DNA of 61,588 bases, filler included, from Hausera hauseri (GCA_046269625.1; 9 parts of 9 records of this genome joined end to end with filler, not necessarily neighbours in it), one strand, 5' to 3'. Shown: positions 8,780-61,588, counted from the whole stretch's first letter. Translations and numbers: made by a program. Notes: generated by a model not told the origin, from the letters alone.

Positions 8780-8800
8780 TTTAAAATTTAATAGAATATA

Positions 8801-9762: not shown

Positions 9763-9862
9763 NNNNNNNNNNNNNNNNNNNNNNNNNNNNNNNNNNNNNN
9801 NNNNNNNNNNNNNNNNNNNNNNNNNNNNNNNNNNNNNNNNNNNNNNNNNNNNNNNNNNNNNN
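9763..9862. other. Scaffold gap (100 N, no linker)
   Basis: Pure N run inside contig 2. Confidence 0.95.
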
Positions 9863-11607: not shown

Positions 11608-11741
11608 CATAAGTATTTGATCATTATTAATAGGGAGAAAATGTGCCTTCTACACCACATGAACCCGCCCCGGGGGAGAGGTACTAAAACCTTGAAACAT
11701 CAATATTCCGCCTTCTTTTTCAATTTCATTGCCAATGCTTT

Positions 11742-30559: not shown

Positions 30560-31210
30560 TAAGTCGTCATTAACCTCCATATATCGCTATTTATGGTGCT
30601 CCCAATAATCTGTGCCATCGATTATCTTCTGATTCATTGAAGAAATCTATTCCGAAACTCCCTTCTCTGTAGTTCACTATTTCTGTTTTCGGGTAATTTG
30701 CTTATAGTAACCAAGTTCTCCAGACCTTCTCTTCTTAAAACATGGCCAATCATAGATGATTGTCTCTTTCTGATCTTATTGTTATGCGTTCTTTCTGGAT
30801 CTGTTTCTCATTTGTGCAAAACATCTCATTTGTTCCCCTTGCTATCAATGGAATTTTCAACATTCATCTGAAAACCACATTATTATTTCTTTCAAAGAAT
30901 TCCCCACGTTTTTTTTAACTCGGTGTCAATTATTCGCAGTATGGGTTCAATATAAAAATTGCAGGATTCTCGTTCTTTAACTGCAATTTGTGGTACACAA
31001 TATGTTTTTCATTTTTCTTAAATGCAGTTTTTGCCCGTGAAATTCTATTTATAATTTCCATGACACATCTGCCAAATGATATTATGAGAGCTCCGAGATA
31101 TTTGAATCTCTGTACATGTCTTACAGTTTTCCTTTCCAACATCTATATTATGATTCTTTCTCCTTACAGTATGTATTCCTTACTGCATTTTATTTATTTT
31201 GGCTGAGTTC
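30560..31210 (-). mobile_element. RTE-clade LINE ORF2 C-terminal fragment
   Basis: VQRFKYLGALIISFGRCVMEIINRISRAKTAFKK and KIRKRQSSMIGHVLRREGLENLVT. Same family as the fragments at 36440, 38540 and 40060. Confidence 0.8.
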
Positions 31211-32630: not shown

Positions 32631-32763
32631 GATCCGTTTTCTTTGTTCAAGGAGATGTTTCGCATCATGTCTTCTAATTTGTTAGTCCCTCTTCCATCTT
32701 CCTCTTTTTCGAATAATTTAGCCTATTTTATTTCTTTGGGTACCCTTCTTGCCGCTTTCATAG

Positions 32764-33744
32764 CTAACCCGATTGCCTTGTCAAACTCATTTTCTCGTAG
32801 GGATTAGTTTTTACCACCAAATATATCAAGACTTTCCTTAATTCTTCCGTCGTATTGTCTATCATAATTCTGTCAATTACTGTTTCGTTAGGGAGGTTGC
32901 CTTTAGATAATTTAAATCGTGGAATTTTCATGGTCCGTGCTATATTATATATTAGCCTTTCTTTCTCGGATAGTATGTCACCGTGTATTCCGGTATAATT
33001 AACTATCCTTATTAAATCTTTCATTAATTCAACTAATTTTTCATTATCCAAACTTGTAGTGGGTACTGATAGTTGTCTTAGTTCTCTAATTAGGTCTGCA
33101 TTATAGTCCACTTCTTTTATTTTTTTTGGTCTTCCGACTGGTCGTTTCGGTTTTACTGGTGATAAAGTTTCGCTTAAAGGAACTAAATTCTTCTCGTATT
33201 GCGGTTTGTCGTCATCCGTCTGTAAGTATTCAAAGTACATTGCGGCGTCCTGAATCTCCATGATTCTTCCAACGCAATGTTCTGTATACGCCTTCCTTAT
33301 GGCTTCGTCTTTGGTTTGCTCACTAGTAATTATTGCCATTATTTGATTCGCTTCAAATGGTATGATCCTTACGTCTATTAAGGATTCCAACTCGTCTAGT
33401 ATTCTACCTCTAAAATAGAGTTGGTAATTAATTCCTTCTTTACCATCCTTATCCATTATTCGTTGTCTTATATCCGAGACGGTGGTAAGAGTAGCACACT
33501 CAAATACCTCGTCATCCATCCATTCGGATGATACTTTCACCTTAATCTCCGCTTCCGGTTTGTTTTTCAATAGTTTAGCGTACTCTCTTATTAAGAGCTT
33601 GGGTACGGCGCTATATGCGGTATTTTCGCTGGATAGCTTAATCAAGGTTGGAATCAGTTTCCTTAACTTATCTTTGCTTATGTTTATTTTCAACATACTG
33701 CTTAGTTCCTTTTCAGCTAGTGTGGAATCAAGTAGCATCTGCAC
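32764..33744 (-). CDS. Retroelement polyprotein segment with a ubiquitin-like domain and an AT-hook
   Basis: Ubl at aa ~66-140 (IKVKV...TTVSDIRQRIMDKDG...YQLYFRGRILDELESLIDVRI; nt ~33325-33549). AT-hook KRPVGRPKK at nt 33121-33147. One frameshift separates this ORF from the env reading frame. Confidence 0.7.
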   Translation of the reverse strand: MQMLLDSTLAEKELSSMLKINISKDKLRKLIPTLIKLSSENTAYSAVPKLLIREYAKLLKNKPEAEIKVKVSSEWMDDEVFECATLTTVSDIRQRIMDKDGKEGINYQLYFRGRILDELESLIDVRIIPFEANQIMAIITSEQTKDEAIRKAYTEHCVGRIMEIQDAAMYFEYLQTDDDKPQYEKNLVPLSETLSPVKPKRPVGRPKKIKEVDYNADLIRELRQLSVPTTSLDNEKLVELMKDLIRIVNYTGIHGDILSEKERLIYNIARTMKIPRFKLSKGNLPNETVIDRIMIDNTTEELRKVLIYLVVKTNPYEKMSLTRQSG

Positions 33745-33989
33745 GTCAAATTCCGCCTTTTGCGTATCAGTAGGTGACTCATAAATTTGTATTGGAGTTC
33801 TTTGACTTTGCTCGGTTAGCCCTTGGAGATATTAGTTCCATTCGGCTTCATTACCTGAGTCAGGTAACTCATAGTTTATTATTGCCGTATGTCCGACCTG
33901 GACTCTTTCGCGTAATTATCTTATGTGAGGTTGCAATGTTTTCATTACGGATATTCTAAATCCGTCTCCATTTCCGCACGCTTGTTGAA

Positions 33990-35600
33990 TTAATGTTATC
34001 AATCGTCACATTTCTTCTGGTTGTATTAAGGCTTTCTCCCGATAACTAATTATTTCTGCGATTCTGTCGTTTTGCCATCTCTGTATAAATTCTGTTTTGT
34101 CGCTCGTTTCATATTCCGTAAGGAAATACTTGTTCTTGTAAACTTCTGTTTCTCTCAGTAAGTCGTTTAGCTCACGTTGCCTTTTCTCGGAGCGTAGCCG
34201 GGTCTCTTTTACCAGACGTATTCGATTTGTTAGTCGTTTGACTACTACTTCGTCACTTTCCGCCATTTCTGTTAACAATACGATTAATTTGTGCATTTGA
34301 TTCAATACTTCAGCGTCCGGATCTATTGCGTCTATTAGCCTGCCTATAAACTTCGCTTCGTCGGCCGTCAGCTAAAGATCCTTTTTAATCTCTGTTAATT
34401 CAGTGTGGCAGTGTAGGTCGAACCCCGGTGTGCATTCTACTGGATTCTGTAAATACTGTAGTGTCTGTGCCAAAGCAATCCGTTGGTCATTACATACTTC
34501 CATTGTTTCTATCTCCTGTACAGAGATCTCCTTTAGCGGTTTCTGTATTAGGTTCTGTATTCCTTCCCAACAGATATTTACTAAGGTTCGCCAAAGATCG
34601 CTTAGCTTGTTTCTTTTTTGTTGAAGTCCTTCCCCTCTATCATACTATATATCTCGGTCAGTGTTGTTTGGTCTTGATCTTCGCTCATAAATTTAAGTTC
34701 TCGAAGTGATTCGCAATTTTGCTTCATCTTCCATCGTACCGATGTCTAGTAGCATTTCCTCCAATTGGTGTCTCATTATAGGCTCAACTACGGCGAAATC
34801 TCTCCATCTTTCGTTTATTATCCCTGCTATGAAAGGTAACAAGTCTATCCACTTAATTGTTTAGATATTGCTGGTTTAGCTTATATTATTTTGACTAATG
34901 CCTCAAAAGCTTCTTTCAGTTCATGATCTCGTCCTCGTATAAATTCTATAATTTGTTTCATATAGTTGAATTCTTCTCTATACGCGTCTAACTCGAGAAG
35001 ACAAGCACATATTATTCTCTGTACTTCTGCCTTTTCAAGGTGAACTATACCGATCTTTAAGTCTTTAATTTTGGCTCGAATTCCATTTTCTCTTTTAATA
35101 CGTATTTTTAAATTTGGGTATTTCCGAGGTTTATCCTTTATTAAGCTGCACATTTCTATTAGAAAGGAAATATCGATATGGTCTATATTCAGTATCTCTA
35201 AGTCGGCATTAGTCAGTTCGTATACTGGCTTGTTATGAAGATAAGAGATTATCGCTTCTTCAGTCTCATACGTCACTCCTTCCAAATTACGCTTTACGCG
35301 TTTTAGTTTTGGGTTGTTCTTAACTGTGTCTAACAGCCCTTGCGCTTGATTAACCTGATCAAGAAGCAACTCATTTTTATTTTACCTATTTTCGTAAAAC
35401 CGATATCACTCGTTGTCTATAGTTCTAATTTATTTTGCCAACTTTTTATCAAGTCTTGCGGCATTTCTTGCAGTTCGTAAGGTGTATTTTCTTCCTTTCT
35501 TTGAGAACCGGATCTAAGCTTTCTATATAGCTTTTCTATAAATTGTTGTTCTTTTCCGGAGATATCCAACTGTTTGCTCATCTGCTGGAGTTTTTGTAAG
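33990..35600 (-). pseudogene. Unknown helical region 'X' of the LTR-element polyprotein, paralogue 1
   Basis: Fragments SKQLDISGKEQQFIEKLY; ORF 34881-35369; IQNLIQKPLKEI...EVC...DLHCHTEL; IDAIDPD; ORF 34006-34305. All are colinear homologues of 57610-59180. Confidence 0.7.
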
Positions 35601-36439: not shown

Positions 36440-36670
36440 GTCATAAGGTAGGTCGTCATGGATCTCAATTTCTTGCGATTCTTGGTGTCCCCCAATCATC
36501 ATTGCTGTTGACCTTCTTCCGAGCCATTCTTGCAAACCATCCAGACACTTCATTCTTTGCCGTCCACTACTCCTACTTTCTGGTAAGTTCTCCATACCTT
36601 CTCTTCTTAAAATATGACCAATCATAGATGTTTGTCTCTTTCTGATCTTACTGATAAGTGTTCTTTTTGC
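36440..36670 (-). mobile_element. RTE LINE 3' fragment
   Basis: ISKIRKRQTSMIGHILRREGMENL...SRSSGRQRMKCLDGLQEWL. Confidence 0.75.
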
Positions 36671-37605: not shown

Positions 37606-38539
37606 TTTACTCATTCTGCAAAATAGGAGCAACGTTCTTAAAGATACTCTTATCAATGTCGTTAGAATAATTTGTGAATCAATCACTCGCGTTTATCAAG
37701 CAGTCACATTGGGTGCTGCTGTTACACCCTCTTTCTCCATTCCAATACTGAATGTAGTTGTTTGATAGACGCTACACTGGACACCTGCTTCCTGTGTAAC
37801 AATTGTGGCGTTTGGATAGATAATTTATAGAGAATAAAAAATCCTACCTGCAAGAAAACTGACGCGTGACGGCGTACATAATTAGGAAGAAAACAGTGTC
37901 ATACCTTTGAGAGGGGACTGTATATGCAAAATTAAAATCAGTTTTTTGTGTGGTTGGACTCATGGAATAGATGGTTACTGTGGGGTCTCAATATATGTTC
38001 ACAAATTGATGCAGAAAGTGCGCGTTACGGAAATTTTCGTTGTAATTTGAACTAATTGTTGTTGTAGACTTATTTTTAAAAAAATCACAGTATAAATAGT
38101 ATGTTCTCTATTGCCTTCATCATCATGTGTAAAGCCATGTGGTGTCGACTGTTATGGAATCCCACATCTCGTTGTTCATGATGTCTCCAGTCATTTCTAC
38201 CGCCGACTGTCTTTTGAGCCCAGTCTGGCAAACCATCAAGAAATGTTACCGGCAGTAATTGCTTTTCACCTGTTCACTTCTTAAATCATGGTTGATCGTG
38301 GATGCTGCTTATCTCTTTATGATTTTGTGGATCACAAATGTTTATTTCAGCCCAAGTTCAGGAAGTAAGTCTTCGTTAGTTCTCTTTAATGACCATGGGA
38401 TATGTAACATTCTGACAAATCGCATCGTTCTTGTTTTCAATGAATTAAGCAGTTTTGTTACTTAATGTCGATACTCGCAAATATGCATGAGCATGTCCAG
38501 TGTAACCCTCATAGACTTTCTTTATTTCAGCGATAGATG

Positions 38540-38790
38540 TGTTTATAATCCCATGGACAGCAAGGAGAATAAATAAAGATGTTTTACACGCAGCAGATAC
38601 AGAAAGATCGCCTGTCAAAAAGATCAGAAAGAGACAAACATCCTAGATTGACCATGTTTTAAGAAGAGAAGGTCTGGAGAACTTGGGCGCGACAGGCAAA
38701 ATACCAGGAAGTAGAAGTAGTGGAAGACAGAGACTGAAGTGTCTGAACGGTTTGCGTGAATGGCTCAGAAACACTATACAGGATACTGGA
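38540..38790 (+). mobile_element. RTE LINE 3' fragment
   Basis: KIRKRQTS*IDHVLRREGLENLGATGKIPGSRSSGRQRLKCLNGLREWL. Confidence 0.72.
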
Positions 38791-39800: not shown

Positions 39801-40059
39801 TGGCTGGCCTAGTGATGAAGTACTCTACTGTTGTAGCAACTGCTGTATGTTTACTTTCTGAAATGAAGGTGTTATTCACAAGGTCAAAGGTAAGCCACAC
39901 ATCCTGGAATCCTGCAGGATACAGTCAACCCTAAGGTCACTGCACTCGGGCGCCAAATAGAATCATGCAGTGGACCTAAAACTCGGTAGTTTAATAACTA
40001 TATAAAAATTAATAACTAAATATATTGCAATTTTGTCAATGCTCGCATCATCATCAGGT

Positions 40060-40365
40060 GCCACGCTATGTAATGTAGATGGTCATGGATCTCCATCTGT
40101 CGCGATTCCTGGCGTCTCCAATCATGTCTGCTGTGACATACTTTCGAGCCATTCACGGAAACCATCCAGACACTTCATCCTCTGTTGTCCACTACTTCTA
40201 TTTCCTAGTATTTTGCCTGCGGTGAGCAAGTGCTCTAGACCGTAACTTCTTAAAACGCGGCCAATCATGGATGCTTGTCTATTTCTGATCTTACTGATAA
40301 GCGTTTTCTTCCAAAACATCTTCATTTGTTCTCCTTGTTGTTAATGGGATTTTCAACACATCTCT
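40060..40365 (-). mobile_element. RTE LINE 3' fragment
   Basis: LISKIRNRQASMIGRVLRSYGLEHLLTAGKILGNRSSGQQRMKCLDGFREWL, followed by a (TGA)n tail. Confidence 0.75.
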
Positions 40366-41762: not shown

Positions 41763-44668
41763 CATACACACGCACAACATCACAATACCTTCATTTGTTC
41801 ATCACAAAACATCTACCCTTTAAAAACTTCTACTTCCATCTTAACAGTATTCTTCAAACCACTGGCAACTCATCTCTGTCTACGCGTTTGCGATATGCTT
41901 TCTCAATTCATTTTCATCACACCTCGGCTTCTTGGTGGCTGTGATCTCAGTCTCGAAACTTCTGAACTCAAAAAGCCACACCCAATACCAATCATCTATC
42001 TTTCCAAATCCGTTGTCAATGCGTTGAATATTTCACCCACAACCAAAATTCACCTCGCACTTGACTAGGTTTTCACGCCCGATGGCTCAGCGTCCATAAT
42101 CTCACTGATTCATTTCTCAAAACCAAAAACCTTCTCGTCTATTTACCTTCCTCCCTAAAGTCATGCCTTTCAAACTTGTCTGAGATCTTCTCTGAAGCTG
42201 ATCCCTACAAAGCTCTCTACGCTTCAGTACTTAACCCCATCGAACAATCTATAGACTTAATAATCCAAAAATATTTCAATGACAATACCTAGGTCAGAAT
42301 CAAGCCTTACAACTTTCTTCGAACGTCTTTATCTAAGCTCAGCACGTTAGGCGTAACACAATCCAACAATTCCGACCTTTTGAGACATACTTTCTTTATC
42401 TCTTGGCCAAGGAAATCCGTGCTCTTTTAACTGTTGTTGAGGACCATGCGACCCTGGACACACTAGCACAGCTCGCCAATTAAAGCTTCGAAATACTGCA
42501 CAAGTAGTCACATACGACAATAGCTGCAACATTAGCAGAACCATAAATTCAATCCCATCTATAAACATTAATACTTGAAACTCAATTACAATCGTTCCAT
42601 GCAGAAAATCTGCAATTAAAAAAAGCTATATCCGCAGTAACAGACAGCTATGTATGGCATCAATCTCGCCCTGAGAGACGCCGATTTCGTAACAACTCAA
42701 CCAATAACCCAAACAATTCAGCTGCACGGAGACAAATGTTTTATTTTCACACAGAATTTAAACAGTCAACTCAAAAAGTGTTGCATAGGTTTTGATAGAA
42801 ACTTTGCAACATCAGACAACATATGTATCTGTCACAATAAATACCAAGACAGTGCTTGACACTGCTTGTCCGGCTGTAAATTCGAGACGCAATTTTCTAA
42901 ATTACAACCTTCCTCATCATCAAAAAGCATATTGCCGACAGAACTTCCGACAAATCCTTTCCAAGGCTCATCTCCATAAAAAACGGCCGAAATACCTCCT
43001 TCGTTGTCTTCACTCTTCACGCAATGTTTCACATCCACTTAAATCAAATATAAATTTTCTCATAGACACGGATGCTGCAGTATCACTACTGCCCAAATCG
43101 TTTGCAATCACAAATCGTCTTCAATCTCTCAACCACTATGCACTGCCAATGGACTACCGTTACGTACCATTGTCACAATTCATTTGTCTTTCACTCTACA
43201 ACACTTTCCCCTAGTCTTTCACTGGACTTTTGTGATAGCAAACGTGCAGTTACCCATTCTACGCCGGGGCTTTCTTTCACGTTACCATCTTCTAGTAGAC
43301 TGTAAAAACGTTGTCTATTGCACAGTTTTAATCAATTTTTTATAACAAATAACTCTTCATTTGAGAGAAATTGGCCTCCAGTGTTTGCGAAGCCTATAAT
43401 TAAATCTGTACTAAAATCATTTAATATAAATAATAATAAAATCGTACATAACAAAATTGTGGACGTTGATAAGTATGAAATTGTCTCCTCCACCGACATA
43501 ACTCCACAACCTACCTCAGCTCCTGATCAACATTCGTCCATACTACCATCATCCTTCAGCCTATTATCAGCGGACTTGCAAACATTTATAACTTTTCAAT
43601 GTTCAAGAATTCTTAAGAAAGCCCCACAACTCAAGCCTTCTTCCAACACGTTTCATTTATAGTTACCTCCTACCAACGATCAACACACCAGAAAGTGTTA
43701 CCTCTTTCACCACGTTACATAAAAGCAGTTGCTCACGAATTCCGAACTATAGAAAACACCAGCATTATAAGAGGTTCAAAATTATCTTGGGCCTCACCCT
43801 TACATGTCGTGCTCAAGAAAGATAGAACTTTCAGGTCTTCTGGCTACTATCGAAAGTTAAACACCATCACGATCATATCCACTTCCACTTATTAACGATA
43901 TACTGCCCAGACTTCATGGTACTTTCATCTTTTCATATATTGATTACCATAAGGCATATCATAAAATATCCGTCGTTCCTGCTGACATACCAAAAAAGGC
44001 TGTCATAACATATTTCGGCTTTTTACAGTATGTTTGCATACCTTTTGGTCTTCACATTGCCTCACTTACCAAAAGCACATTAACACTATTCTTTCTGGCC
44101 TAGATTTCGCCTTCCGATACATATACGACACATTTATTGCTTCGTCGTCTCCCAAACACTATTCTGAATATCTGTACATATTTTTCCAACGCTTACACAA
44201 AAACAACCTTGGAGTCAACTTCGTCAAATGCTCTTTCTCTCAATACAAGATCAACTTTCTTGGACATGTTATAATCCAATTTGGCCATCACCGCAGCAAG
44301 ACCGCATTACTGAGTTCAACAACATTCATTTTCCATGAACATCCACAGAAATGCTTTCCTTTCTCGGAACTCTTCACTTCGTGCACAAGAATGTGCAATA
44401 CTGTTCCACATTTACTGAACTATTCGCTTCACCAGCTCCGGTAAAAAGAAGCAGCTCATTCACCGGACTACTGACCTAGTAAACTCGTTTGAACATCTTA
44501 AAAAACTTAAAAACTGCCGAAATCCTGTAATATCTTGATTCAAACTCAACTCTTTCTTACAATCGATGTACCACTGCATCAGGTGCAGTACTTTATATAT
44601 TCAAAGACGGATTCCATCAGCCAGTTGAATTTTTTTCACAAAAATTTACAAAAACCGAATAACGGTTT

Positions 44669-45876
44669 TAGGGCTTATTGCTTTATGAGAGTCCCTGATC
44701 CCATTTAACAACATTGAAACCAAAAAACAGTAAGAAAAAACGAACGTAAAAAATTGGTAGAAAACAACAGCATAAGGGTGATAACGTTTATTCACATTAC
44801 AATCGTCGTCTGCTGACGACTGAGACTCTTCCATTGGAGGATAGAAACGGTGCCGTCCTGAGAAGTCGACGAAAGGGAATTGGTTAGTCATCCGTGCCGG
44901 GGCTGTACGCCCTGACCCGCCGTGAGCCGGAGATTCTTTGGTCCGGAATCAACTGGCTCTCAGAGAGAACCAGTGATTCGAACATCCGGTCTGCAGCCGC
45001 CATCAGCCTTATAAAGACTGGTAAGAAGGCAGAGGAATCGAACAACCGTCGGTGACCTCCATCGGCGTAAAACCGTCGAAGATGTCCGTTTGGGACGCAG
45101 TACGGGTCGTTCTTGGGCAGCCTGTTGAGGTGCCGCACGAATCTGCTCCGTTGCAGCAGCTTTCACACCGCCTGATAATCCAAATACGAGCAACACAAAG
45201 CTTGACGGTCCCGAATGCGATGTCGCTTTCTACTAGAGACGGTGTCTCGCCGGGCTGTGTGTCTCCGATCTTCGGATCGGGTTTGTTCCGTTGAAGCGGT
45301 ATGCCTGTCGGTTCCATTCTCCGCTCAGGCGTGTGTAGGTCGGGGTACCTTGGGAATGCGGTACCCCGTAAACGGAACGGTCTTCTTTTCGTTCGCCGTG
45401 ATATCTGGTTGGTCTGGCGCATCGCCTAGGTGGGCCTTGAAGGCTTGTCTGACGATAGGTTCGCCGGGTTTCTATATCTTGAATGTCGACATCTGGCCCT
45501 TTTCGAACGCTTTCGGTGCTATTGGAATTTTTTTATACTTTGAATATAAGTGATCTTCTTAAAACTGGATTCAAACAAAATGGATTTGAATGTACAGATT
45601 TCGATTGTCAATTGCTTTATTATTACAAGTGCTGATCACTTCAGCACTCGTAATTCCAGTTTTTTATTTGTTTGTTTCGTAGGCGGATTCTTGTTTGTTT
45701 GGGATGAATACGTGATTTGCTTTTGATTTTACTTTTGACAAGGTTTGTGATATTAAGCGAATCCGTGGTTTTGTTACTACTATTTGGTATGTTTAAAATT
45801 TCAAGGGGAATAAATTTTTAAATTCGTGATTTGTTTATTTTTTGTACTTATTTTTTGTTTGTAAAGCAAAGCTTTA
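44669..45876. mobile_element. 1.2-kb nested insertion in the gypsy RNase H; probable non-autonomous DNA transposon
   Basis: Splits ...KTE / QRYSTFD. Near-duplicated target AACGGTTT (44661-44668) versus AACGGTAT (45878-45885). Imperfect TIRs TAGGGCTTATTGCTTTA and TAAAGCAAAGCTTTA. Confidence 0.65.
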
Positions 45877-47894
45877 CAACGGTATTCCACCTTCGACAAA
45901 AAGTTGCTTGTTATGATCCTAGCCGTAATGCATTCTAAACACATTCTGCTTTCACGCACTTTCACCATCCAAACGGATCATAAACCTTTGCTTCACATAC
46001 TCACTATGAAGTCTCCATCTCCACGTCAGGAGAGACAAATATAATATATCTCAACGTTTGCTGTTAACATAAAACATAATTCAGGTATTTACAACTAAGT
46101 AGCCAATTTCTTATCGAGTTCCGTCGACTCTATCAGTTTTGCGCCTATTTTTGACAACAAGACACTCCGCCGGAAAAAGCCAAATGATCCCATTCTCTCC
46201 GCCTTCAAATTCCATAAAATCGTTGATGGCGTAGCTTTAGACACCACCAATCCTTGATTCACTAAAATTATTCTTTCACCGACGCTGCTAAAAACAGCAA
46301 TCAACAACGTTCATTCGCTGCATCGCCCAGGATCCAAAGCTACGTATCGACTTTTTAAACGCAAAGTCACATGGCCATCAATAAAATCAGATGTGCAGAA
46401 TTAGTTTAGGGAGCGTGCGGCATGACAGAAGTTTAATGTAGCCAAACACATCAAGCCGCCTCTTTATCATTTTCCCTGCACATCACAATTTGACACTATT
46501 CACACTGATATAGTTGGTCCACTACAACCAGACAGTGACAATCAGTTTATCCTCACCATGATGGACTAAACCTTCAGATGGCCAGAAACCGTTCCACTCC
46601 TGTTCTGTTCAACATAGACAGTGTCCCTTGGTCCATGGTGGTTGGATACGGCTGAGTGGTCCGTTTCCGCCTAATCGGACAGATAGCCGGATCCGAGTTT
46701 ACTCTTCGGCTGGTCTTGTAGCGGAACAATGTCCATTGAACAAAATCACAAATAAATCTACACCAATAAATTTAACCTTTGCAAACAAATCCGGTCAGAT
46801 CTTGCCCATATGCATTGTACCGACTGTCCTTACATTGTTCCTAACAACTAGATGGACTTCGTAGCATGAAAAATTTATAACAGTGTATAGAAAGTTCTTT
46901 ACTTAAATCAGACCATAATTTTGATTCTACCCCTCACATAGTGGGGCAGCTGTTACATAATCAAAATCAGTAGTTACGATATATTTCCGTCCCAAATTGC
47001 TTTCACAATTTTGTGTAGAATATTTTGCTATCTTTGTTATTATGTTACTGTCGCTTATTTTGTTTATTTGATTATGTATAAATTTATTTGTATCCCACAA
47101 ATCCGTTTTCTCTTTTACATAACAATTATTTTTGATTTAATCGATTTTGTACAGACTGATTCGTGTCCAAAAAACCCGTTTTCTCCTTTTGTACGATGTA
47201 ATATTTTTAACAGATAATTAAAGTAAATCGTGTACAAAATTATTCGACATCATATGTACAAGTTTTATTAAGAAGTGCGCAGTGATGTACTATTGCCGTC
47301 TGGTTTCATGCGCTGCCCATTTTACCCCATCGTACTGATATAAAATATGTGACACGACTATATAGAAAATATGTTTATGCCGCAATATTAAAAAATTTTA
47401 AACATTAAAGATATTTTGCATTAGAAATTTAGTAATGACTTCATATCTAATATAATACTATAAGGAAAAGTGGTAACATTGTGCATTTGTTCACCGTTTC
47501 ACTCATTCCTGCTATCTATAGAGCTTGCTAAGTCAGTGGAGAAATAAAGTATTGTACATCAAGATGGCATGACAGTTGCAAAACAATGTAGTGTTTATTA
47601 AATGGTCGTGGCAGATACGAGGAAAGAAACAGGTAGTGACAACTGCACTGATATGGCTGGTTGATCAGAAAACATTAGGTCCATTGGTTGGTAATCATAG
47701 ATTACATTTTGAAAGTTTGAGCGCCTGCTATCGAAAGCTTCAAGACATAATCCGCGAAATACTTGGATTCATTAAAACACCTTTTAATGAACAGTATTAA
47801 AGCACATTATCATCCCCATAAGATGGCATACTGAAAAGTTTCGTGAATGTGCGTAATTAATTGCACTTCCTCTGCAAGGCTAATTATTGGAAAA

Positions 47895-47994: not shown

Positions 47995-50900
47995 TAAGAC
48001 TAAGACTAAGACTAAGACTAAGACTAAGACTAAGACTAAAAGACAAAGACTAAGACTAAGACTAAGACTAACACTAAGAGTAAGAGTAAGAGTAAGACTA
48101 AGACTAAGACTAAGAGTAAGACTAAGACTAAGTCTAAGATTAAGATTAAGACAAAGACTAAGACTAAGACTAAGAGAAAGACTAAGACTAAGATTAAGAC
48201 TAAGACTAAGACAAAGACAAAGACAAAGATAAAGACTAAGAGTAAGAGTAAGAGTAAGACTAAGACTAAGACTAAGACTAAGATTAAGACTAAGACTAAG
48301 ACTAAGACTAAGACTAAAAGACAAAGACTAAGACTAAGACTAAAACTAAGATTAAAACTTAGACTAAGATTATAAGAATAAGACTAAGACTAAGACGAAG
48401 ACAAAAACTAAGACTAAGACTTAGACTAAGACTAAGACAGACTAAGACTAAGACTAAGACTAAGACGAAGACAAAAACTAAGACTTAGACTAAGACTAAG
48501 ACTAAGACTAAGACTAAGACTAAGACTAAGACTAAGAATAATACTTAGACTAAGACTAAGACTAAGACTAAGACTAAGACTAAGACTAAGACCAAGACTA
48601 AGATTAAGACTAAGACAAAGACTAAGACTAATACTAAGAATAAGACTAAGACTAAGACTAAGACTAAGACTAAGACTAAGACTAAGACTAAGACTTAGAA
48701 TAAGACTAAGACTAAGACTAAGACTAAGATTAAGATTAAGAATAAGACAAAGACAAAGACAAAGATAAAGACTAAGAGTAAGAGTAAGAGTATAAGTAAG
48801 AGTAAGACTAAGACTAAGACTAAGACTAAGACTAAAAGACAGACTAAGACTAAGACCAAGACTAAGACTAAGACTAAGAATAAGACTAAGACTAAGACTA
48901 AGACTAAGATTAAGACTAAGATTAAGATTTATACTAAGACAATGACTAAGATTAAGTCTAAAACTAAGACTAAGATTGAGACTATGACTAAGACTAAGAA
49001 TAAGACAAAGATTAAGAATAAGACTAAGGTTAGAATAAGACTAAGACTAAGACTAAGACTAAAAGAATAAGACTAAGACTAAGACTAATACTAAGACTAA
49101 GATTAAGACTAAGACAAAGACTAAGACTAAGGCTAAGAGAAAGATTAAGACTAAGATTAAGACTAAGACTAAGACAAAGACAAAGACAAAGATAAAGACT
49201 AAGAGTAAGAGTAAGACTAAGACTAAGACTAAGACTAAGACTAAGACTAAGACTAAGACTAAAAGACAAAGACTAAGACTAAGACTAAGACTAAGATTAA
49301 GACTTAGACTAAGATTATAAGATTAAGACTAATACTAAGACTAAGACTATAACGAAGACAAAAACTAAGACTAAGACTTAGACTAAGACTAAGACAGACT
49401 AAGACTAAGACTAAGACAAAGACGAAGACAAAAATTAAGACTTAGACTAAGACTAAGACTAAGACTAAGACTAAGACTAAGACTAAGACTAAGACTAAGA
49501 ATAAGACTTAGACTAAGAGTAAGAGTAAGACTAAGACTAAGACTAAGACTAAGATTAAGACTAAGACAAAGACTAAGACTAATACTAAGAATAAGACTAA
49601 GACTAAGACTAATACTAAGACTAAGACTAAGACTTAGATTAAGACTAAGACTAAGACTAAGACTAAGAGTAAGACTAAGATTAAGACAAAGACAAAGACA
49701 AAGATAAAGACTAAGAGTAAGAGTAAGTGTAAGACTAAGACTAAGACTAAGACTAAGATTAAGACTTAGACTAAGAATAAGAATAATACCAAAATTAAGA
49801 ATAAGAGTAAGACTAAGACTAAGACTAAATTAAGACTAAGACAAAGATTAAGACTAACCCTTTGTCTTAGTCTTAATCTGAGTCTTAATCTTAGTCTTAG
49901 TCTTAGTCTTAATCTTAGTCTTAGTCTAAGTCTTAGTATTGGTCTTAGTCTTAGTCTTAGTCTTAGTATTAGTCATAGTCAGTCTAATAGTAAGACTAAG
50001 ACAAAGACTAAGATTAAGACTAAGACAAAGACAAAGACTATGACTAAGACTAAGAATAAGACTAAGATTAAGATTAAGAATAAGACTAAGACTAAGACTA
50101 AGACTAAGAATTAGACTAAGACTAAGACTAAGACTAAGACAAAGACAAAGTCAAAGACTAAGACAAAGACTAAGAATAAGGCTAAGACTAAGACTAAGAT
50201 TAAGACTAAGACTAAGATTTAGACTAAGAAAAAGACTAAGATTAGGATTAAAACTAAGACTAAGATTGAGACTAAGAATAAGAATAAGACTAAGACTAAG
50301 ACTAAGAATAAGACTAAAAGTATAAGACTAAGGATAATACTAAGACTAAGATTAAGACTAAGACTAAGAGTAAGACTAAGGCTAAGATGAAGACAAAGAC
50401 TAAGATTATGACTAAAACTAAGAATAAATTGAGTCTAAGATTAAGACTAAGACTAAAACTAAGACTAAGAATAAGACAAAAAGAATAAGGCTAAGACTAA
50501 TACTAAAACTAAGATTAAGACTAAGATTAAGACTAAGATTAAGATTTAGACTAAGACAAAGACTAAGATTGAGACTAAAACTAAGACTAAGATTGAGACT
50601 AAGACTAAGACTAAGACTCAGACTTCGACTAAGACTAAGACTAACAATAAGACTAAGATTAAGACTATGACTAAAACAAAGACAAAGACAAAAGCAAAGA
50701 CTAAGACTAAGACTAAGACAAAGACTAACATTAAGACTAAAACTAAGACTAAGATTTAGACTAATATTAAGACTAAGACTAAGATTAAGACTAAGACTAA
50801 AACTAAGACGAAGACTAAGACTAAGACTAAAAATAAGACTAAGAGAAAGACTACGACTAAGACTAAGACTAAGACTAAGACTAAGGCTAAGATTAAGACT

Positions 50901-53900
50901 AAGATTAAAAGAGAAAGACTAAGACTAAGACTAAGACTAAGGCTAAGACTAACACTAAGACTTAGTCTAAGACTAAGACTAAGACTAAGACTAAGAGTAA
51001 GACTAAGAAAAAGACAAAGGCAAAGATAAAGACTAAGTCTAAAAGTAAGAGTAAGAGAAAGACTAAGACTAAGTCTAAGACTAAGACTAAGACTAAGACT
51101 AAGACTAAAAGACAGACTAAGACTAAGAACAAGACTAAGACTAAGAGTAAGACTAAGACTAAGACTAAGACTAAGAATAAGACTAAGACTAAGACTTAGA
51201 CTAAGAATAAGACTAATACCAAAACTAAGAATAAGAGTAAGACTAAGTCTAAGACTAAATTAAGAATAAGACAAAGACTAAGACTGAGACTTTGTCTTAG
51301 TCTTAATCTTAGTCGTAGTCTTAGTCTTAGTCTTAGTCTTTGCATTTGTCTTTGTCTTTGTTTTAGTCTTAGTCTTAATCTTAGTCTTATTGTTAGTCTT
51401 AGTCTTATTCCAAGTCTGAGTCTTAGTCTTAGTCTTAGTCTAAGTCTAAGTATTAGACTTGGTCTTAATCTTAGTATTAATCTTAGTCTTAATCTTATTC
51501 TTAGTCTTATTCTTAGTCGTAGTCTTAATCTTTTGTCTTAATCTTAGTCTTATTCTTAGCCCTAGTATTAGCCTTATTCTTAGTCTAATAGTAAGACTGA
51601 GACAAAGACTAAGATTAAGACTAAGACAAAGACAAAGACTAAGACTAAGAATAAGATTAAGACTAAGGCTAAGATTAAGATTAAGACAAAGATTTAGACT
51701 AAGACAAAGACTAAGCTTAAGACTAAAACTAAGACTAAGATTGAGACTAAGACTAAGACTAAGATTGAGACTAAGACTAAGACTAAGACTAGGAATAAGA
51801 CTAAGACTAAGAATAAGACTAAGTCTAAGATTAAAATTAAGAGTAAGACTAAGACAGAATAAGACTAAGACTAAGACTAATACTAAGACTAATATTAAGA
51901 CAAAGACAAAGACTAAGACTAAGACTAAGAGAACGACTAAGACTAAGACTAAGACAAAGACAAAGACAAAGATAAAGGCTAAGAGAAAGAGTAAGACTAA
52001 GACTAAGACTAAGATTAAGACTAAGACTAAGACTAAGACTAAGACTAAAAGAAAAGGCTAAGACTAAGAGTAAGATTAAGATTAAGACTAAGACTAAGAT
52101 TATAAGACTAAGACTAAGACTAAGTCTAAGACTAAGACTAAGACTAAGACGAAGACAAAAACTAAGTCTAAGACTTAGACTACGACTAAGACAGACTAAG
52201 ACTAAGACTAAGAATAAGACGAAGACAAAATCTAAGATTAAGACTAAGACTAAGATTAAGACTAAGTCTAAGACTAAGACTAAGACTAAGACCAAGACTA
52301 AGACTAAGATTTAGATTAAGACTAAGACTAAGTCTAAGACTAAGACTAAGACTAAGACTAAGACTAAGACTGAGACAAAGATTAAGATTAAGACAAAGAG
52401 TAAGACTAAGACTAAGAATAAGACTAAGACTAAAACTAAGACTAAGACTAAGACTAAGACTAAGACTTAGACTAAGACTAAGACTAAGACTAAGATTAAC
52501 ATTAAGACAAAGACAAAGACAAAGAAAAAGACTAAGAGTAAGAGTAAGAGTAAGACTAAGACTAAGATTAAGACTAAGACTAAGACTAAGACTAAGACTT
52601 AGACTAAGAATAAGACTAATACCAAAACTAAGAATAAGAGTAAGACTAAGACTAAGACTAAATTAAGACTAAGACAAAGACTAAGACTAAGCCTTTGTCT
52701 TACTCTTAATCTTAGTCTTAGTCTTAGTCGTAGTCTTCGTCGTTGCTTTTGTCTTTGTCTTTGTTTTAGTCTTAGTCTTAATCTTAGTCTTATTGTTAGT
52801 CTTAGTCTTAGTCCAAGTCTGAGTCTTAGTCTTAGTCTTAGTCTTAGTCTAAGTCTTAGACTTGGTCTTAGTCTTAGTATTAGTCTTAGTCTTACTCTTA
52901 TTCTTAGTCTTATTCTTAGTCTTAGTCTTAGTCTTTTGTCTTAAACTTAGTCTTATTCTTAGTCCTAGTATTAGTCTTAGTCTTAGTCTAATAGTAAGAC
53001 GAAGACAAAGACTAAGATTAAGACTAAGACAAAGACAAAGACTAAGACTAAGAATAAGACTAAGACTAAGAATAAGACTAAGACTAAGATTAAAATTAAG
53101 AGTAAGACTAAGACAGAATAAGACTAAGACTAAGAATAAGACTAAGGCTAAGATTAAAACTAAGACTAAGACTAATTCAGAATAAAACTAAGACTAAGGC
53201 TAATACTAAGGCTAATATTAAGACTAAGACAAAGACTAAGACTAAGACTAAGAGAACGACTAAGACTAAGACAAAGACAAAGACAAAGACAAAGATAAAG
53301 AATAAGAGAAAGAGTAAGACTAAGACTAAGACTAAGACTAAGACTAAGACTCAGACTAAGACTAAAAGACAAAGACTAAGTCTAAGAGTAAGACTAAAAT
53401 TAAGACTAAGACTAAGATTATAAGATTAAGACTAAGACAAAGACTAAAACTAAGACTAAGACTAAGACCAAGACAAAAACTAAGACTAAGATTTAGACTA
53501 AGACTAAGACAGACTAAGACTAAGACTAAGAATAAGACGAAGTCAGAAATTAAAATTAAGACTAAGACTAAGACTAAGACTAAGACTAAGACTAAGACTA
53601 AGACTAAGACTAAGACCAAGACTAAGACTAATATTTAGACTAAGACTAAGACTTAGTCTAAGACTAAGTCTAAGACTAAGACTAAGACTAAGACTAAGAC
53701 AAAGATTAAGATTAAGACAAAGACTAAGACTAAGACTAAGAATAAGACTAAGACTAATACTAAGACTAAGACTAAGACTAAGACTTAGACTAAGACTAAG
53801 ACTAAGACTAAGTCTAAGTCTAAGATTAAGATTAAGACAAAGACAAAGACAAAGATAAAGACTAAGAGTAAGAGTAAGACTAAGACGAAGACTAAGACTA

Positions 53901-56900
53901 AGACGAAGACTAAGACTTAGACTAAGAATAAGACTAATACCAAAACTAAGAATAAGAGTAAGACTAAGACTAAGACTATATTAAGATTCAGAATAAGACC
54001 ACGACTAAGACTAAGATTAAGACTAAGACTAAGATTAAGACTAAGACGAAGACATAGACTAAGAATAAGACTAATTCCAAAACTAAGAATAAGACTAAGA
54101 CTAAGACTATATTAAGACTAAGACAACGACTAAGACTAAGCCTTTGTCTTAATCTTAATCTTAGTCTTAGTCTTAGACTTATTCTTAGTCTTAGTCTTTG
54201 CATTTGTCTTTGTCTTTGTCTTAGTCTTAGTCTTTATCTTAGTCTTATTGTTAGTCTTAGTCTTAGTCCTAGTCTGAGTCTTAGTCTTAGACTTAGTCTA
54301 AGTCTTATTCTTGGTCTTAGTCTTAGTCCTAGTCTTAATCTTAGTCTTAGTCTTAGTCTTATTCTTAGTCTTAGTCTTAGTCTTTTGTCTTAATCTTAGT
54401 CTTAGTCTTAGACATAGTATCAGTCTTAATCTTAGTCTAATGGTAAGACTAAGACAAAGACTAAGATTAAGACTAAGAAAAAGACAAAGCCTATGACTAA
54501 GACTAAGAATAAGACTGAGACTAAGACTGAGAATAAGACTAAGACTAAGACTAAGACTAAGATTAAGACTAAGACTAAAAGACAAAGACTAAGACTAAGA
54601 CTAAGACTAAGATTAAGATTTAGACTAAGATTATAAGATTAAGACTAAGACTAAGACTAAGACTGACTAAGACGAAGACAAAAACTAAGACTAAGACATA
54701 GACTAAGACTAAGACAAAGTAAGATTAAGACTAAGACGAAGACAAAAACTTAGACTAAGACTAAGACTAAGATTAAGACTAAGATTAAGACTAATACTAA
54801 TACTAAGACTTAGACTAAGACTAAGATTAAGACTAAGACTAAGCCTAAAACTAAGACTAAAACTAAGATTAAGACTAAGACAAAGACTAAGACTAAGACT
54901 CATACTAAGAATAAGACTAAGGCTAAGCCTAAGACTAAGACTAAGACTAAGACTAAGACTTAGATTAAGATTAAGACTAAGACTAAGAATAAGACTAAGA
55001 CTAAGATTAAGATTAAGACAAAGACAAAGACAAAGATAAAGACTAAGAGTAAGAGTAAGAGTAAGAATAAGACTAAGACTAAGACTAAGGCAAAGACTAA
55101 GACTAAAAGACAGACTAAGACTAAGACCAAGACTAAGACTAAGAGTAAGACTAAGATTAATACTTAGACTAAGAATAAGACTAATACCAAAACTAAGAAT
55201 AAGAGTAAGACTAAGACTAAGACTAAATTAAGTCTAAGACAAAGACTAAGACTAAGCCTTTGTCTTAGTCTTAATCTTAGTCTTAGTCTTAGTCTTAGAC
55301 TTAGTCTTAGTCTTAGTCTTAGTCTTTGCTTTTGTCTTTGTCTTTGTATTAGTCTTAATCTTAATCTTAATCATATTGTTAGTCTTAGTCTTAGTCCTAG
55401 TCTGAGTCTTAGTCTTAGTCTTAGTCTTAATCTAAGTCTTAGACTTTGTCTTAGTCTTAGTATTAGTATTAGTCTTAGTCTTGTTCTTAGTCTTATTCTT
55501 AGACTTAGTCTTAGTCTTTTGTCTTAATCTTAGTCTTAGTCTTAGTTCTAGTATTAGTCTTAGTCTTAGTCTAATAGTAAGACTAAGACAAAGACTAAGA
55601 TTAAGACTAAGACAAAGACGAAGACTATGACTAAGACTAAGAATAAGACTAAGACTAAGGCTAAGAATAATACTAAGATTAAGACTAAGACTTAGACTAA
55701 GACTAAGACTAAGACTAAGACTAAGGCTAATTCTAAAACTAAGACTAAGAGTAAGAGTAAGACTAAGACTAAGACTAAGACTAAGACTAAGACTAAAAGA
55801 CAAAGACTAAGACTAAAAGACAAAGACTAAGACTAAGCGTAAGACTAAGATTAAGTCTAAGACTAAGATTATAAGATTAAGACTACGACTAAGTCTAAGA
55901 CTAAGACTAAGACTAAGACGAAGACAAAAACTAAGACTAAGACTTAGACTAAGATTAAGAAAAACTAAAACTAAGAATAAGACGAAGACAAAAATTAAGA
56001 CTAAGATTTAGACTAAGAATAAGACTAAGACTAAGACTAAGACTAAGACTATGACTAAGATTTAGACTAAGACTAAGAGGAAGACTAAGACTAAGACTAA
56101 GACTAAGAATAAGACTAAGATTAAGTCTAAGACAAAGACTAAGAATAAATCTAATAATAAGACTAAGACTAAGACTAAGACTAAGAATAAGACTAAGATT
56201 TAGACTAAGACTAAGACTAAGACTAAGACTAAGATTAAGATTAAGACAAAGACAAAGACAAAGATGAAGACTAAGAGTAAGAGTAAGACTAAGAATAAGA
56301 CTAAGACTAAGACTAAGACTAAGACTAAAAGACAGACTAAGACTAAGTCCAAGAGTAAGACTAAGATTGAGACTAAGACTAAGACTAAGACTAAGACTTA
56401 GACTAAGAATAAGACTAATACCAAAATTAAGAATAAGAGTAAGACTAAGACTAAGACTATATTAAGACTAAGACAAAGACTAAGACTAAGCCTTTGTCTT
56501 AGTCTTAATCTTAGTCTTAGTCTTAGTCTTAGTCTTTGCCTTTTTCTTTGTCTTTGTCTTAGTCTTAGTCTCCATCTTAGTCTTATTGTTAGGCTTAGTC
56601 TTAGTCCTAGTCTGAGTCTTAGTCTTAGTCTTTGTCTTAGTCTTATTCTTAGTCTTAGTTTTAGTCTTTTGTCTAAATCTTAGTCTTAGTCTTAGACCTA
56701 GTATTAGTCTTAATCTTAATCTAATAGTAAGACTAACACAGACTAAGATTAAGACTAAGACAAAGACAAAGGCTATGACTAAGACTAAGAATAAGACTAA
56801 GACTAAGACTAAGAATAAGACTAAGACTAAGACTAAGATTAAGACTTAGACTAAGACTAAGACTAAGACTAAGACTAAGACTAAGACTAATTCTAAGACT

Positions 56901-57509
56901 AAGACTAAGACTAAGAGTAAGACTAAGTCTAAGAGTAAGACTAATACTAAGACTAAGACGAAGACAAAGACAAAGTCAAAGACTAAGACAAAGACTAAGA
57001 ATAAGACTAAGACTAAGTCTATGATTAAGACTAAGACTAAGATTTAGACTAAGACAAAGACTAAGATTAAGACTAAAACTAAGACTAAGATTGAGACTAA
57101 GACTAAGACAAAGACTAAGACTAAGAATAAGACTAAAAGAATAAGACTAAGACTAATACTAAGACTAAGATTAAGACTAAGACTAAGACTAAGACTAAGG
57201 ATAAGATGAAGACAAAGACTAAGATTATTACTATAACTAAGACTAAGATTGAGACTAATACTAAGACTAAGACTAAGACTAAGAATAAGACTAAAAGAAT
57301 AAGACTGAGACTAATACTAAGACTAAGATTAAGACTAATATTAAGACTAAGATTAAGATTTAGACTAAGACAAAGACTAAGATTAAGACTAAAACTAAGA
57401 CTAAGATTGAGACTAAGACTAAGACTAAGACTAAGACTAAGACTAAGAATAAGACTAAAAGAATAAGACTAAGACTAATACTAAGACTAAGATTAAGACT
57501 AAGACTAAG
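47995..57509. repeat. (TAAGAC)n/(GTCTTA)n hexanucleotide satellite with higher-order units and six inverted blocks
   Basis: The whole contig consists of TAAGAC and one-base variants. Inverted blocks at about 49861-49987, 51291-51588, 52694-52990, 54143-54440, 55259-55574 and 56493-56724. Confidence 0.97.
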
Positions 57510-57609: not shown

Positions 57610-59860
57610 TGTTAGTTCAGAGGCTACGTCTCTCTGCCATCTTTGCACAAACTGCGACTTGTCGACTTTCTCCGCTTCAGTGAGAGAGTATTTATTTATA
57701 TAGTTCTCGAACTCCTTCAGTAATTTGTCTAGTCTTATGGCTCTCTGCTTGGTTTCACTGCATGTTTCTTCGACTTGGCCTATCTGAAGCAACAATTGTT
57801 TTATCTTCTCATCGCTAATTTCTGCCATTTCTACCATTAGACGTGCTAATTCATACATTTCACTAATAGTTTTGAGTCCGGATCTGTAGCATCTAATAAC
57901 TTTTTTGCACACCTGGCTACTTCAACGCTAAGATGGTGGTAGTTTCTGATCATTATCAGTTCGGTATGACATCTCTGGTCCGTTCCGATCGTCCAGTTTT
58001 GTAGGTCGTGTAAAAATTTTATTGCCTCTTCTATCGCCGATCGGTGCATCGGACAAACGTCCAACGTTCTGAGATTTTGAATCAAGATCTCTTTGATAGG
58101 TTTTGCAGTTAAGTGCTGAATTTTTTCCAGGCGGATATTTCTTAATCTCGGATAGACGTTACAAGTCATTTTCCGCTTCTCTGTAAAGTTTGTTTCTTCG
58201 ATTATTTTATATATCTTCCAATATCGTCGTTTGTTGTTTTCTTTTCATAAAGTTCAATTGGTATAATGCATTAAATTGTGTCCTAGTATCCACTTCCGCT
58301 TTCATTGTATCCAGATTTCGTGCATCATCTTCTAATTGCATCCTTACTGTAGGCTCACTTTCTGGGAACTTTTTTATACGGTCTTCTACTAATTTTCTCA
58401 GTCTCGTTATTACCCGACACTATTCGTCTATCTGGTTAGCGGTATTCAGCTTCGGCAATATTGTCTTGTCCAGCATTTTATATGCGTTTTCTAACTCGTC
58501 GTCCGGGCCTTTTATGAAACTAATGCTTAGTTGAATTCATCCTTATACTCATCAATTTCAAGGATACAGGCCTTAATTATGTTCTGTGTCTCGTCATTGT
58601 CCAACTGCATGATTCTATTTATTAAACTATATATCTGTGACCTTTTTTCGTTTTCGATTTTAATACAATTTTCCAGACTTGTATATTGTTTTGCTGCGGT
58701 GGAAGCAATTTTTATTATCTCCATTAATGGTGGGATATCTAGCGAGCTTATACCCAACAATTCCAAATCAATTTCGTTTCGTTCCTTGACCGGTTTTTGT
58801 CTGAGCCTCTCCACCATTTTGAATCTAATTTCGTTCATGACGCGCTACACGTTACAAGTTACCCTTTTAGTTTCAGATTGGCTTCTAGTATGGTCAGTAA
58901 TGCTTGGGCTTTATTTATTCTTGCTTCGACATTCTTTGAATGTTTATCCCACGCTTCGGAAAATTTAATTCCACTCTGTATCTAAGTTTTTAATTCGTAT
59001 TTCCATTTCTCTAACGTTTCTGGTGACACTTCCTCAGGTTGCCCTAGGTCTAAAGCTTCGTTCAGTTTTTCCTCACTATATAATTTCATTTTCTTGTATA
59101 ATCTTTATATAAATTGCTGCTCTTTACCAGAAATGTCTACTTGTTTGTTCATCTCTTTAAGTTTCTCTAAGTTCTGTTGCAATACGTCTGGGTTGAGACA
59201 ATTAATTCACATTCTCTTTAATTCATCAGAATTTTTCCATGAACGCCTGATTTTTCACTGTTTCTGATCAACCCTCTCACTTTGCTCTGTCTCTTATTCA
59301 CTAGTAGGTAGTGGACATATCTCATTAATTTCATTCACAGATTTTGTTAACTCTTCTATGCCAACAGGTGTAACTAACCAAATTTCTGGGGTATCCAAGG
59401 TGAACTCTACATCGCTTTCTAGAGCGATTTCAGTTTCTTTTGCTCTGTCAGACTTTTCATTATTCATCGGGGATTGTGAACGATCTTTACGTTTCCGCTT
59501 TAATGACGGACTGCGGCCTCTATTCTTTGTAATTTTGAGTATTAGTGGTTCTATAATTTTTTTCCTCGTCAACCTCTATAGTTTTGTCCATTTTTTCTAC
59601 CACATATTCCGGTTCTGCATCTAAATCCACTTCATTCGGAGTTTGGGACTTTTCGGGTTTCTTTATCTCTCTATTAGATGCAGGAACATGCTTTTTCCGT
59701 GCCATATTGGTGAGCCTTGGTTGGGCTATAGAGTGTTTATATTCTGTTTCTGGCTTGCGAAGGCCATTGTATATTTCTAGTAAGCGTAATTTGTGCTCAT
59801 ACTCATTCCTGGCCATTAAGACTTTGGGATCGTTAGTATCAGGTTGAGCCTTCAAGAAAC
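57610..59860 (-). pseudogene. Unknown region 'X' of the LTR-element polyprotein, paralogue 2, directly downstream of the Gag zinc knuckle
   Basis: ORFs 59520-59855, 59294-59572 (basic patch RSPSLKRKRK), NKQVDISGKEQQFI*RLY, 58527-58838, 57846-58169 (KPIKEI...DVC...DQRCHTEL...LDATDPD) and 57610-57912. Colinear with 33990-35600. Confidence 0.7.
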
Positions 59861-59984
59861 GTCACAAATCTTGTATTTCGATAATTATACCCGTGTCTTT
59901 ACGAATGCCATAAATTGTTTCTAGATTTTCGTTCCTAATTACATTAGTTTTGCTAGGCTCAAAAAATGAAACACTTTGCGGATT

Positions 59985-61189
59985 TGGACAGGACCTTGCT
60001 ACGTGTCCTTCTTGTCCGCAGGTGTAACAAATTAGGTTACCATTTCTACCGACCCTTTGTCGTCAATCTTCATTTATTGGAAATTTCGATCTTCTCGGAT
60101 TTCTATTAAAATTCTGGTACGACGAAATTTGTCTAGTATCTCCATTCTGATGATTTTCATAACTTCGATTATCGCTGTGCCGGTTTCCATTGTTAAAATT
60201 TCTGGGGCCGTCCGAACGTCTATCCGTACTATAGTTTGGTCTACTAGATGAGCTATTACGGTCATTATCAAAATTCCGGTTACCATACCGATTACTTCTA
60301 TAATCATTGTTATTATTCTGGTTTCTATTGCCATAATTTCTGTTAAATCGCCTATCATTTCTCCCGTGATTATCATTCCGATTTCTATCATTTCGATCAT
60401 TATTTCTGTCGTTTTTGTCTTTACCCTTAACATATCTATCCAGTGCCATTTCCAAGTCTTGGGCCAACTGCAAGGTTTTATAAAAATTCTCAGGTCTGGC
60501 TAAAATCAACTGTTTCACTATATCTCTAGACCAGATGCCATTTATTAAGTGCGTCATCATCATAACGTCCAAAACAGGAGGGTTTGCCTTCTCTGCGGCT
60601 TCCCGCTCTGCGTCGCTTTTAGCCTTAGCTATATTAGCTAGTCTTAAAGTACTCACATAGCTTTTCGCACGTTTCTTTAATACAAATTCAAACTGGGTTA
60701 TCGACTCACCCTTCTGTTGCACTCTATTCTGGAAGGCCATGAGGCTTTGTTGTGGAATTACTGTCGGAAATAATTTTCAATTTAAGGCTCCTACTAGGAA
60801 GGATCGCGTTTCTTTTCATCGTCAGTGAGTTCACTATAGGTATCAGCGGCCAAATTCTTCAAATATAGTGACAAGCGTTTAATCATCACATTAGCTGCGA
60901 GTTCAGCACCTTCTGCGTGCAACTCATAAGTTCTTAAGAATTTATTAAGTCCGTCCGGTTCTCCATCATACGCCGGCAGATTCAGGGAACCGAATGTAAA
61001 AATGTCCAGCTTCTGCGCTACTGCTTGATTTTCGACCATGTTTTCTACGTTTATTAAATTTTGCTTAATTAACTTACGGGTTCTAATTCTCTTATGAGGA
61101 ACTTTAAATTCTATAGGCTGTCCAGAAGCGTCTAAATCAGTAAGTTCAATGTTAACTAAATTCGTCTCAGATAAGGTACGTCTACTCAA
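59985..61189 (-). pseudogene. Ty3/gypsy-type Gag (capsid, R/N-rich linker, CCHC zinc knuckle); frameshifted
   Basis: LPAYDGEPDGLNKFLRTYE...RLSLYLKNLAADTY; RVQQKGESITQF...HLINGI..DIVKQL...TLQLAQDLE; knuckle CYTCGQEGHVARSC at 59988-60029. Confidence 0.88.
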
Positions 61190-61460
61190 CGTTTTATCCT
61201 GTCTATAAACTTTGTTGCGCGTTTCGCGTAGGTTAATATTCTCTTTGCCGTTTAGAATTACGTTTAAGTTATCGTCTGACTTATATCTATTAATATTCGT
61301 CCTTATTTCAATAGTATGTCGTTAAATTTGGCTGAGAGTTTCTTATAAATCCAGCAATTTAAGTTCACAACGATTCTTTAATCGATTATTTGATGTGGCG
61401 GAGCTGATCGCCAATATGTCGTTACTTTTTACTAAGAGTCAATTCTAGCAAGTGCAAACT

Positions 61461-61478
61461 GTCCTGCTAGGGTCGCCA
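61461..61478 (-). promoter_or_regulatory. Primer-binding site, tRNA-Arg-like
   Basis: Minus strand TGGCGACCCTAGCAGGAC, 3 nt after the LTR terminal ...TTAACA. It is complementary to a tRNA 3' end GTCCTGCTAGGGTCGCCA, which resembles tRNA-Arg(UCG) ends (TCCTG..xGGTCGCCA). Confidence 0.75.
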
Positions 61479-61481
61479 AAA

Positions 61482-61588
61482 TGTTAATAGTTGAAGGTTG
61501 GCCCTATTCAACACCCAACTATAACAATATTTAAACTCAATTTAAACAATAATTTATAAGCACATAAGTCCTAACGTTCTCGTTAGAA
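61482..61588 (-). repeat. 3' end (U5) of the 5' LTR of the gag-X-env element, truncated by the window edge
   Basis: Ends in ...CTATTAACA immediately before TTT and the PBS. Confidence 0.7.

Follow-up and report, generated by a model that had tools for sequence, protein, structure and literature searches.

A decayed, high-copy, probably Ty3/gypsy element family of Hausera hauseri with a conserved, predicted helical orphan region between Gag and a chuvirus-like envelope, and with pol probably located after env

The window, by which we mean the whole stretch of 61,588 nt analysed here from Hausera hauseri (GCA_046269625.1), holds two partial copies of an envelope-bearing LTR element, one on contig C9 (57610-61588) and one on contig C5 (31433-35600), each bounded by N runs and both read on the minus strand. 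Because the joins in the window are N44-TTAATTAATTAA-N44 linkers in eight cases, with one plain 100-N gap besides, physical linkage of the two contigs is not demonstrated. Both copies carry stop codons and frameshifts and both are cut by gaps. The passage from Gag into a long region that we call X is visible in C9 alone and that from X into env in C5 alone, and the joined map is thus a composite by homology. It reads, in order, LTR-like end, primer site, Gag-like region with CCHC knuckle, X, a weak ubiquitin-like domain (Ubl), an AT-hook-like motif, and env. Gag start and env start lie approximately 4.7 kb apart on this composite, and Pfam scans found zero pol in the approximately 8 kb of element visible over both copies. 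The features, in reading direction, are as follows.

61482-61588, minus strand: likely 3' end of the 5' LTR, CA-terminated 3 nt before the primer site and cut by the window end
61461-61478, minus strand: primer-binding site of 18 nt, complementary to a tRNA 3' end with CCA (motif scan; exact tRNA match)
60426-61039, minus strand: likely Gag capsid region, with a frameshift near 60790 (position between primer site and knuckle; motif likeness)
60066-60425, minus strand: low-complexity linker rich in Arg, Asn and Asp (translation)
59988-60029, minus strand: single CCHC zinc knuckle of the nucleocapsid (Pfam PF00098, E 1.5e-7; motif scan)
59171-59987, minus strand: charged stretch from knuckle to X, where pol would start in a standard element (no pol family; colinear diverged contigs)
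57613-59170, minus strand: region X, C9 copy, with stops and frameshifts, gap-cut (seven colinear HSPs to C5)
33834-35599, minus strand: region X, C5 copy, predicted all-helical (homology to C9; predicted model)
33364-33516, minus strand: weak ubiquitin-like domain (PF00240, E 0.001, under the cut-off; PDB ubiquitin matches)
33121-33147, minus strand: AT-hook-like basic motif with an imperfect core (motif scan; no Pfam match)
32764-32766, minus strand: stop that closes the first ORF, with the env ATG opening 2 nt later
31433-32761, minus strand: gB-type (class III, chuvirus-like) env with in-frame stops, gap-cut before the membrane anchor (PF24664)

An earlier note, made from the sequence alone, had placed an LTR end in C9, and the arrangement there bears this out: approximately 107 bases finish in ...AACA at 61482 and are followed by a 3-nt spacer and then by the primer site. 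Summed contig depth is highest at this end among 30 bins of C9, which is a weak hint in the same direction. C9 has one LTR end only, and neither a second LTR nor a target-site duplication is visible in the sequence at hand. In two of seven metagenome matches, a tRNA-Asn(GTT) gene ends in exactly the primer-site sequence together with its CCA, which gives the site the shape of a genuine tRNA 3' end. These two genes (L001 1724-1799 and L006 87-162, the latter on the minus strand) encode the CCA, their last 18 bases being equal to the element's primer site; none of the seven loci has tblastx similarity to C9 or C5. By hand count, the site differs at 2 to 3 of 12 nt from the tRNA-Arg and tRNA-Asn ends given in the available part of PMC13524379. 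The tRNA-Arg-like primer site of the earlier note thus stands as an 18-nt site of tRNA-end form, and its isotype, which may be Arg or Asn, is unsettled.

Downstream of the primer site, the region at 60426-61039 is likely the Gag capsid, as judged from its position and from motif likeness; we presume it to be of gypsy type. Neither Pfam nor PDB gave a match for the capsid part, so that of the gypsy-type Gag with CCHC motif proposed earlier it is the knuckle that is secured by a profile. The charged stretch that follows contains a basic Arg/Ser-rich patch near 59521-59468 and, in the Gag frame, a literal DTG at 59897 that lacks protease context. We rejected this DTG as a protease remnant, as we did an LLDS stretch near 33735, on the grounds of wrong context and no Pfam match. 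A Pfam-type scan at E 0.1 of the three sense frames of 57610-61480 found no pol family, and the same scan detected RVT_1, RT_RNaseH and Integrase_H2C2 in decayed pol sequence elsewhere in the window. The statement that no DTG/DSG, reverse transcriptase, RNase H or integrase motif follows Gag therefore survives at the level of families and fails on the letter of the DTG. The gag-env interval remains free of pol on joining C9 and C5 by homology, and X follows Gag directly, as had been claimed, the coding sequence of C9 passing from knuckle to X with no evident break.

The pol that served as the positive control is a decayed Ty3/gypsy pol at approximately 42900-46700 on the plus strand, which we take from its motifs to be CsRN1-like. 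We considered it as a partner of the C9 family and rejected it, there being no shared DNA match, LTR or primer site. Other sequence in the window includes an intronless DnaJA gene of 408 aa (3100-4326, minus strand) that groups with DnaJA clusters of arthropods and chordates and points only to animals, and a contig (26112-31332) whose two ends carry an exact 77-base direct repeat. This contig, which probably reflects a loop in the assembly graph or a tandem unit, contains an intronless protein kinase ORF (28439-29290). A look-up by exact sequence in the protein collection gave no match for DnaJ, for the kinase or for env. A second exact 77-base repeat occurs at 9863-9939 and 11666-11742, the span 8796-11742 containing several related transposase fragments, 81-97% alike, that are presumably Tc1/mariner-like by their motifs. 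Four related fragments, 69-77% alike (30534-30869, 36444-36669, 38535-38771 and 40050-40363), resemble what we take to be 3' ends of RTE-type LINEs, and a degenerate AAGACT satellite occupies 9.5 kb (47995-57509), with an orientation flip near 56730.

Region X is what ties the two contigs together. C9 59170-57613 aligns with C5 35599-34051 in seven colinear tblastx HSPs (sum E 6.6e-68), the best of which scores 89.5 bits, whereas 100 codon shuffles reached no more than 32.7. Over 444 codons, the identity at first, second and third codon positions is 0.57, 0.66 and 0.38, and 107 of the 176 identical residues use different codons; from this pattern we conclude that X has been kept as protein. 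The earlier observations that distal C9 is colinear and homologous with the start of C5, that X is conserved, and that the two contigs are diverged copies of one design are accordingly upheld. Amino acid identity of only 32-60% per HSP and the placement on separate contigs would also fit two different designs that share X alone, which would make the joined map wrong, but we consider this scarcely credible, as the colinear homology spans the whole 1.55 kb overlap and stops only at the contig ends.

X belongs to no known protein family in Pfam. Its predicted model is all-helical with a mean pLDDT of 58, and no Foldseek match was found at E 0.001 in PDB or BFVD. A whole-library phmmer search of 1.84 billion proteins returned a sole outside homologue (P0001, 32% identity, E 1e-12), a singleton protein on a 2157-base ENA contig. 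A query of 626 aa comprising X and the Ubl found no homologue among 8000 scored candidates of 344-1096 aa, and locus searches with the X alignment or with env gave no related loci. For the ORF at 32767-33831, the best ESM Atlas score of 0.76 was uninformative and the AlphaFold pLDDT was 32. Nor did we find a description of X, or of such a pol-less animal element, in the literature covered, which excluded subscription journals and Repbase. X is a real orphan region, all-helical by prediction. Its basic patches, the AT-hook-like motif and the predicted helical fold suggest that, within the Gag polyprotein, X would most likely be an accessory or scaffold segment that acts in the nucleus in association with nucleic acid. 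The nematode element Cer1 has a nuclear accessory protein (PMC10309623, available part), which may be likened to such a role by analogy only.

Whether the junction of Gag with X belongs to the family or to one damaged copy bears directly on the absence of pol. Run X1 is the single run found to contain the stretch, and the window itself may derive from it. On C9, 3765 of its contigs align at an identity of at least 80%, and 3227 of these are less than 95% alike. They cover 30 of 30 bins of C9, and 2 in 100 run on into unlike sequence; no RNA dataset holding the stretch was found. Most env-bearing Ty3/gypsy elements are ordered gag-pol-env (PMC13524379, available part), and a standard gag-pol-X-env element of which the C9 copy or subfamily lost pol through internal deletion would conform to that order. 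C5 begins inside X, and none of the eight contig pieces listed, from a set with 3795 more, spans the knuckle to X, both of which leave room for such a deletion. Against it, three listed contig records, each with 37-65 differences and roughly 80-90% alike, tile 59140-59707 colinearly; among the six best-supported loose ends, of a set with 776 more, none falls within 59171-59987, the nearest being at 60017 (about 10 letters); and the coding sequence is continuous from knuckle to X. We regard the deletion as very unlikely. The colinear, diverged contigs and the positions of the loose ends favour, short of proof, a Gag-X junction common to the family over a one-off deletion.

On C5, X is followed by the candidate Ubl, which scores 19.3 bits against a Pfam cut-off of 25.4. 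Ubiquitin chains head the PDB sequence search with C5, the best single-domain E being 0.01. The AT-hook of the earlier note is less exact than its name: the core of the AT-hook is RGRP, and the basic motif on C5 reads VGRP, without the first R. The env ATG opens in another frame than the first ORF, 2 nt past its stop, as seen in one decayed copy.

The envelope matches positions 21-362 of the 653-position Monjiviricetes_fusion profile (PF24664, E 2.8e-25), which confirms, for a partial env, the chuvirus-like glycoprotein previously assigned to C5. A hydrophobic stretch lies at its N-terminus and none in its body. The contig ends approximately halfway through env, and approximately 290 profile positions lie beyond the assembly gap. 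Candidates of 198-630 aa and of 631-2000 aa included no homologue of this env. Our comparisons of it use a reference set of 229 env fragments from the available part of the PMC13524379 supplement. By eye, over 138 of the 229 supplement rows (the remainder mostly insect), C5 env is closest to six planarian C1a rows. Identities were counted by hand against two rows only, Smed_errantivirus_6 and BEL-71_CQ. Residues 36-277 share 72 of 220 positions (approximately 33%) and 8 of 8 cysteines with Smed_errantivirus_6 in a hand alignment that omits one variable loop, against 36-42 of about 220 (16-19%) with the mosquito BEL/Pao element BEL-71_CQ. For scale, identity is 31-38% in 11 of the 12 planarian env pairs given and 64% in the other. 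In a search of the 229 rows with motifs chosen after the planarian rows had been viewed, YATNY occurred in two rows and FHCG in one, all planarian, and GLKFI, GLRFI and STPTM occurred in none.

These envelope affinities point to a group of elements in which pol follows env. Flatworm, nematode and bryozoan elements with a gB-type env are ordered GAG-ENV-POL according to Chary and Hayashi, and Smed_errantivirus_6 is so labelled (PMC13524379, available part). The planarian C1a errantiviruses, Smed_errantivirus_5 and _6, resemble the family described here in their gB-type env with the same eight cysteines, at the approximate identity to Smed_6 counted by hand above, and in having no pol between gag and env. 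They differ in that a long X-Ubl tail goes without mention, the word 'ubiquitin' occurring 0 times in the main text as available, and in that the available listing gives no primer site for the six planarian rows, whereas C9 has one. In Schmidtea, Smed_5 lies at CM039680.1:211892823-211909760 and Smed_6 at CM039681.1:91387725-91405689. The tabulated spans are 16.9 kb for Smed_5 and 18.0 kb for Smed_6 against 14.5-14.9 kb for Smed_1 to Smed_4 (PMC13524379, available part), a difference that, if the flanks are equal, amounts to 2-3 kb extra and therefore to about the size of X-Ubl. Smed_5 and Smed_6 would thus have room for an X-sized insert, a circumstantial point that comes from the tabulated spans.

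The giant planarian gypsy elements Burro/GYPSM1 offer an architectural parallel, at the level of published description. Burro is ordered Gag-CCHC, Smc-like, Ubi2/SUMO-like, BCL2-like, env and PR-RT-RH-IN (PMC6431247, available part), with its pol after env. The present family resembles it in the order of a Gag-like CCHC region, a predicted helical region, a candidate ubiquitin-like domain and env. It differs in its polyprotein of 4,900-5,100 aa with an in-frame env and 2-3 knuckles, whereas the C9/C5 family has one knuckle, the shorter gag-to-env distance given above, and env in another frame. When the sense frames of C9 and the larger ORFs of C5 were scanned with Pfam, the Burro accessory motifs MATH, BIR, BCL2 and ankyrin did not appear. 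By analogy with Burro, X seems to extend the first ORF and need not replace pol. X may already be present in the Burro sequences and in the ORF sequences on which PMC13524379 is based. Mosquito BEL/Pao elements reported with a chuvirus-like glycoprotein (Anakin; PMC7642597) have the same envelope class, but their env is distant from that of C5, as the hand count against BEL-71_CQ indicates. The C9 Gag, moreover, looks gypsy-like by its motifs.

Taken together, the family is probably a high-copy, decayed Ty3/gypsy family ordered gag-X-env-pol, in which pol would lie after env, beyond the assembly gap. The 5' LTR would drive transcription, and a host tRNA would prime reverse transcription at 61478-61461. 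A single first ORF, about 1,570 codons long as composed from two copies, would yield capsid, nucleocapsid and the X-Ubl tail; env, from its own ATG directly past the first-ORF stop, would supply a class III fusion protein through which the element would spread between cells; and a downstream pol would provide protease, reverse transcriptase and integrase. Pol, its position and the manner of env and pol expression are all conjectural in this scheme. Against it, the sequence contains no pol of the C9/C5 family, and env type can recombine between lineages.

The earlier note had led with a pol-less, bipartite system in which X stands where pol would be, and had named pol placed elsewhere as an option. 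It is the latter that is best supported, the closest envelopes belonging to elements with pol after env. A pol-less LTR-gag-X-env-LTR family whose genes are under selection and which is copied by pol from a second family with the same primer site would agree with the lack of pol in the visible 8 kb, with the conservation of X at the protein level and with the many copies, and it has a precedent in Athila of Arabidopsis, which has gag and env without pol under purifying selection (PMC2410132, available part). Athila is relevant to this reading only, and it belongs to a plant lineage and carries an unrelated env-like ORF. The pol-less reading is unsupported because C5 stops in mid-env at a gap, which leaves the part behind env outside the data; the nearest published envelopes speak against it, as does the sole gypsy pol in the window, which has no DNA match or primer site in common with C9. 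With no positive evidence in its favour, we judge such a family unlikely. The fuller proposal that it implies, a two-component invertebrate endogenous retrovirus in which a pol-less, enveloped element provides the capsid, a fusogen of chuvirus type and a new helical accessory protein with a ubiquitin-like tail, and a separate partner supplies pol, seems to us equally unlikely. A pol-less family would be new for this animal lineage but not categorically so, because such families are known from plant Athila.

A family truly without pol would be a split retroviral system of a kind rarely met in animals. Elements with env before pol look pol-less in fragmented assemblies, and this calls for caution. 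If instead the order gag-X-env-pol is correct, the family would add another member to the little-studied invertebrate retroviruses with env before pol and would bring with it an undescribed conserved accessory region, X plus Ubl, on Gag. Its size would lie midway between the plain planarian elements and the giant Burro, which would make a stepwise growth of the Burro polyprotein testable.
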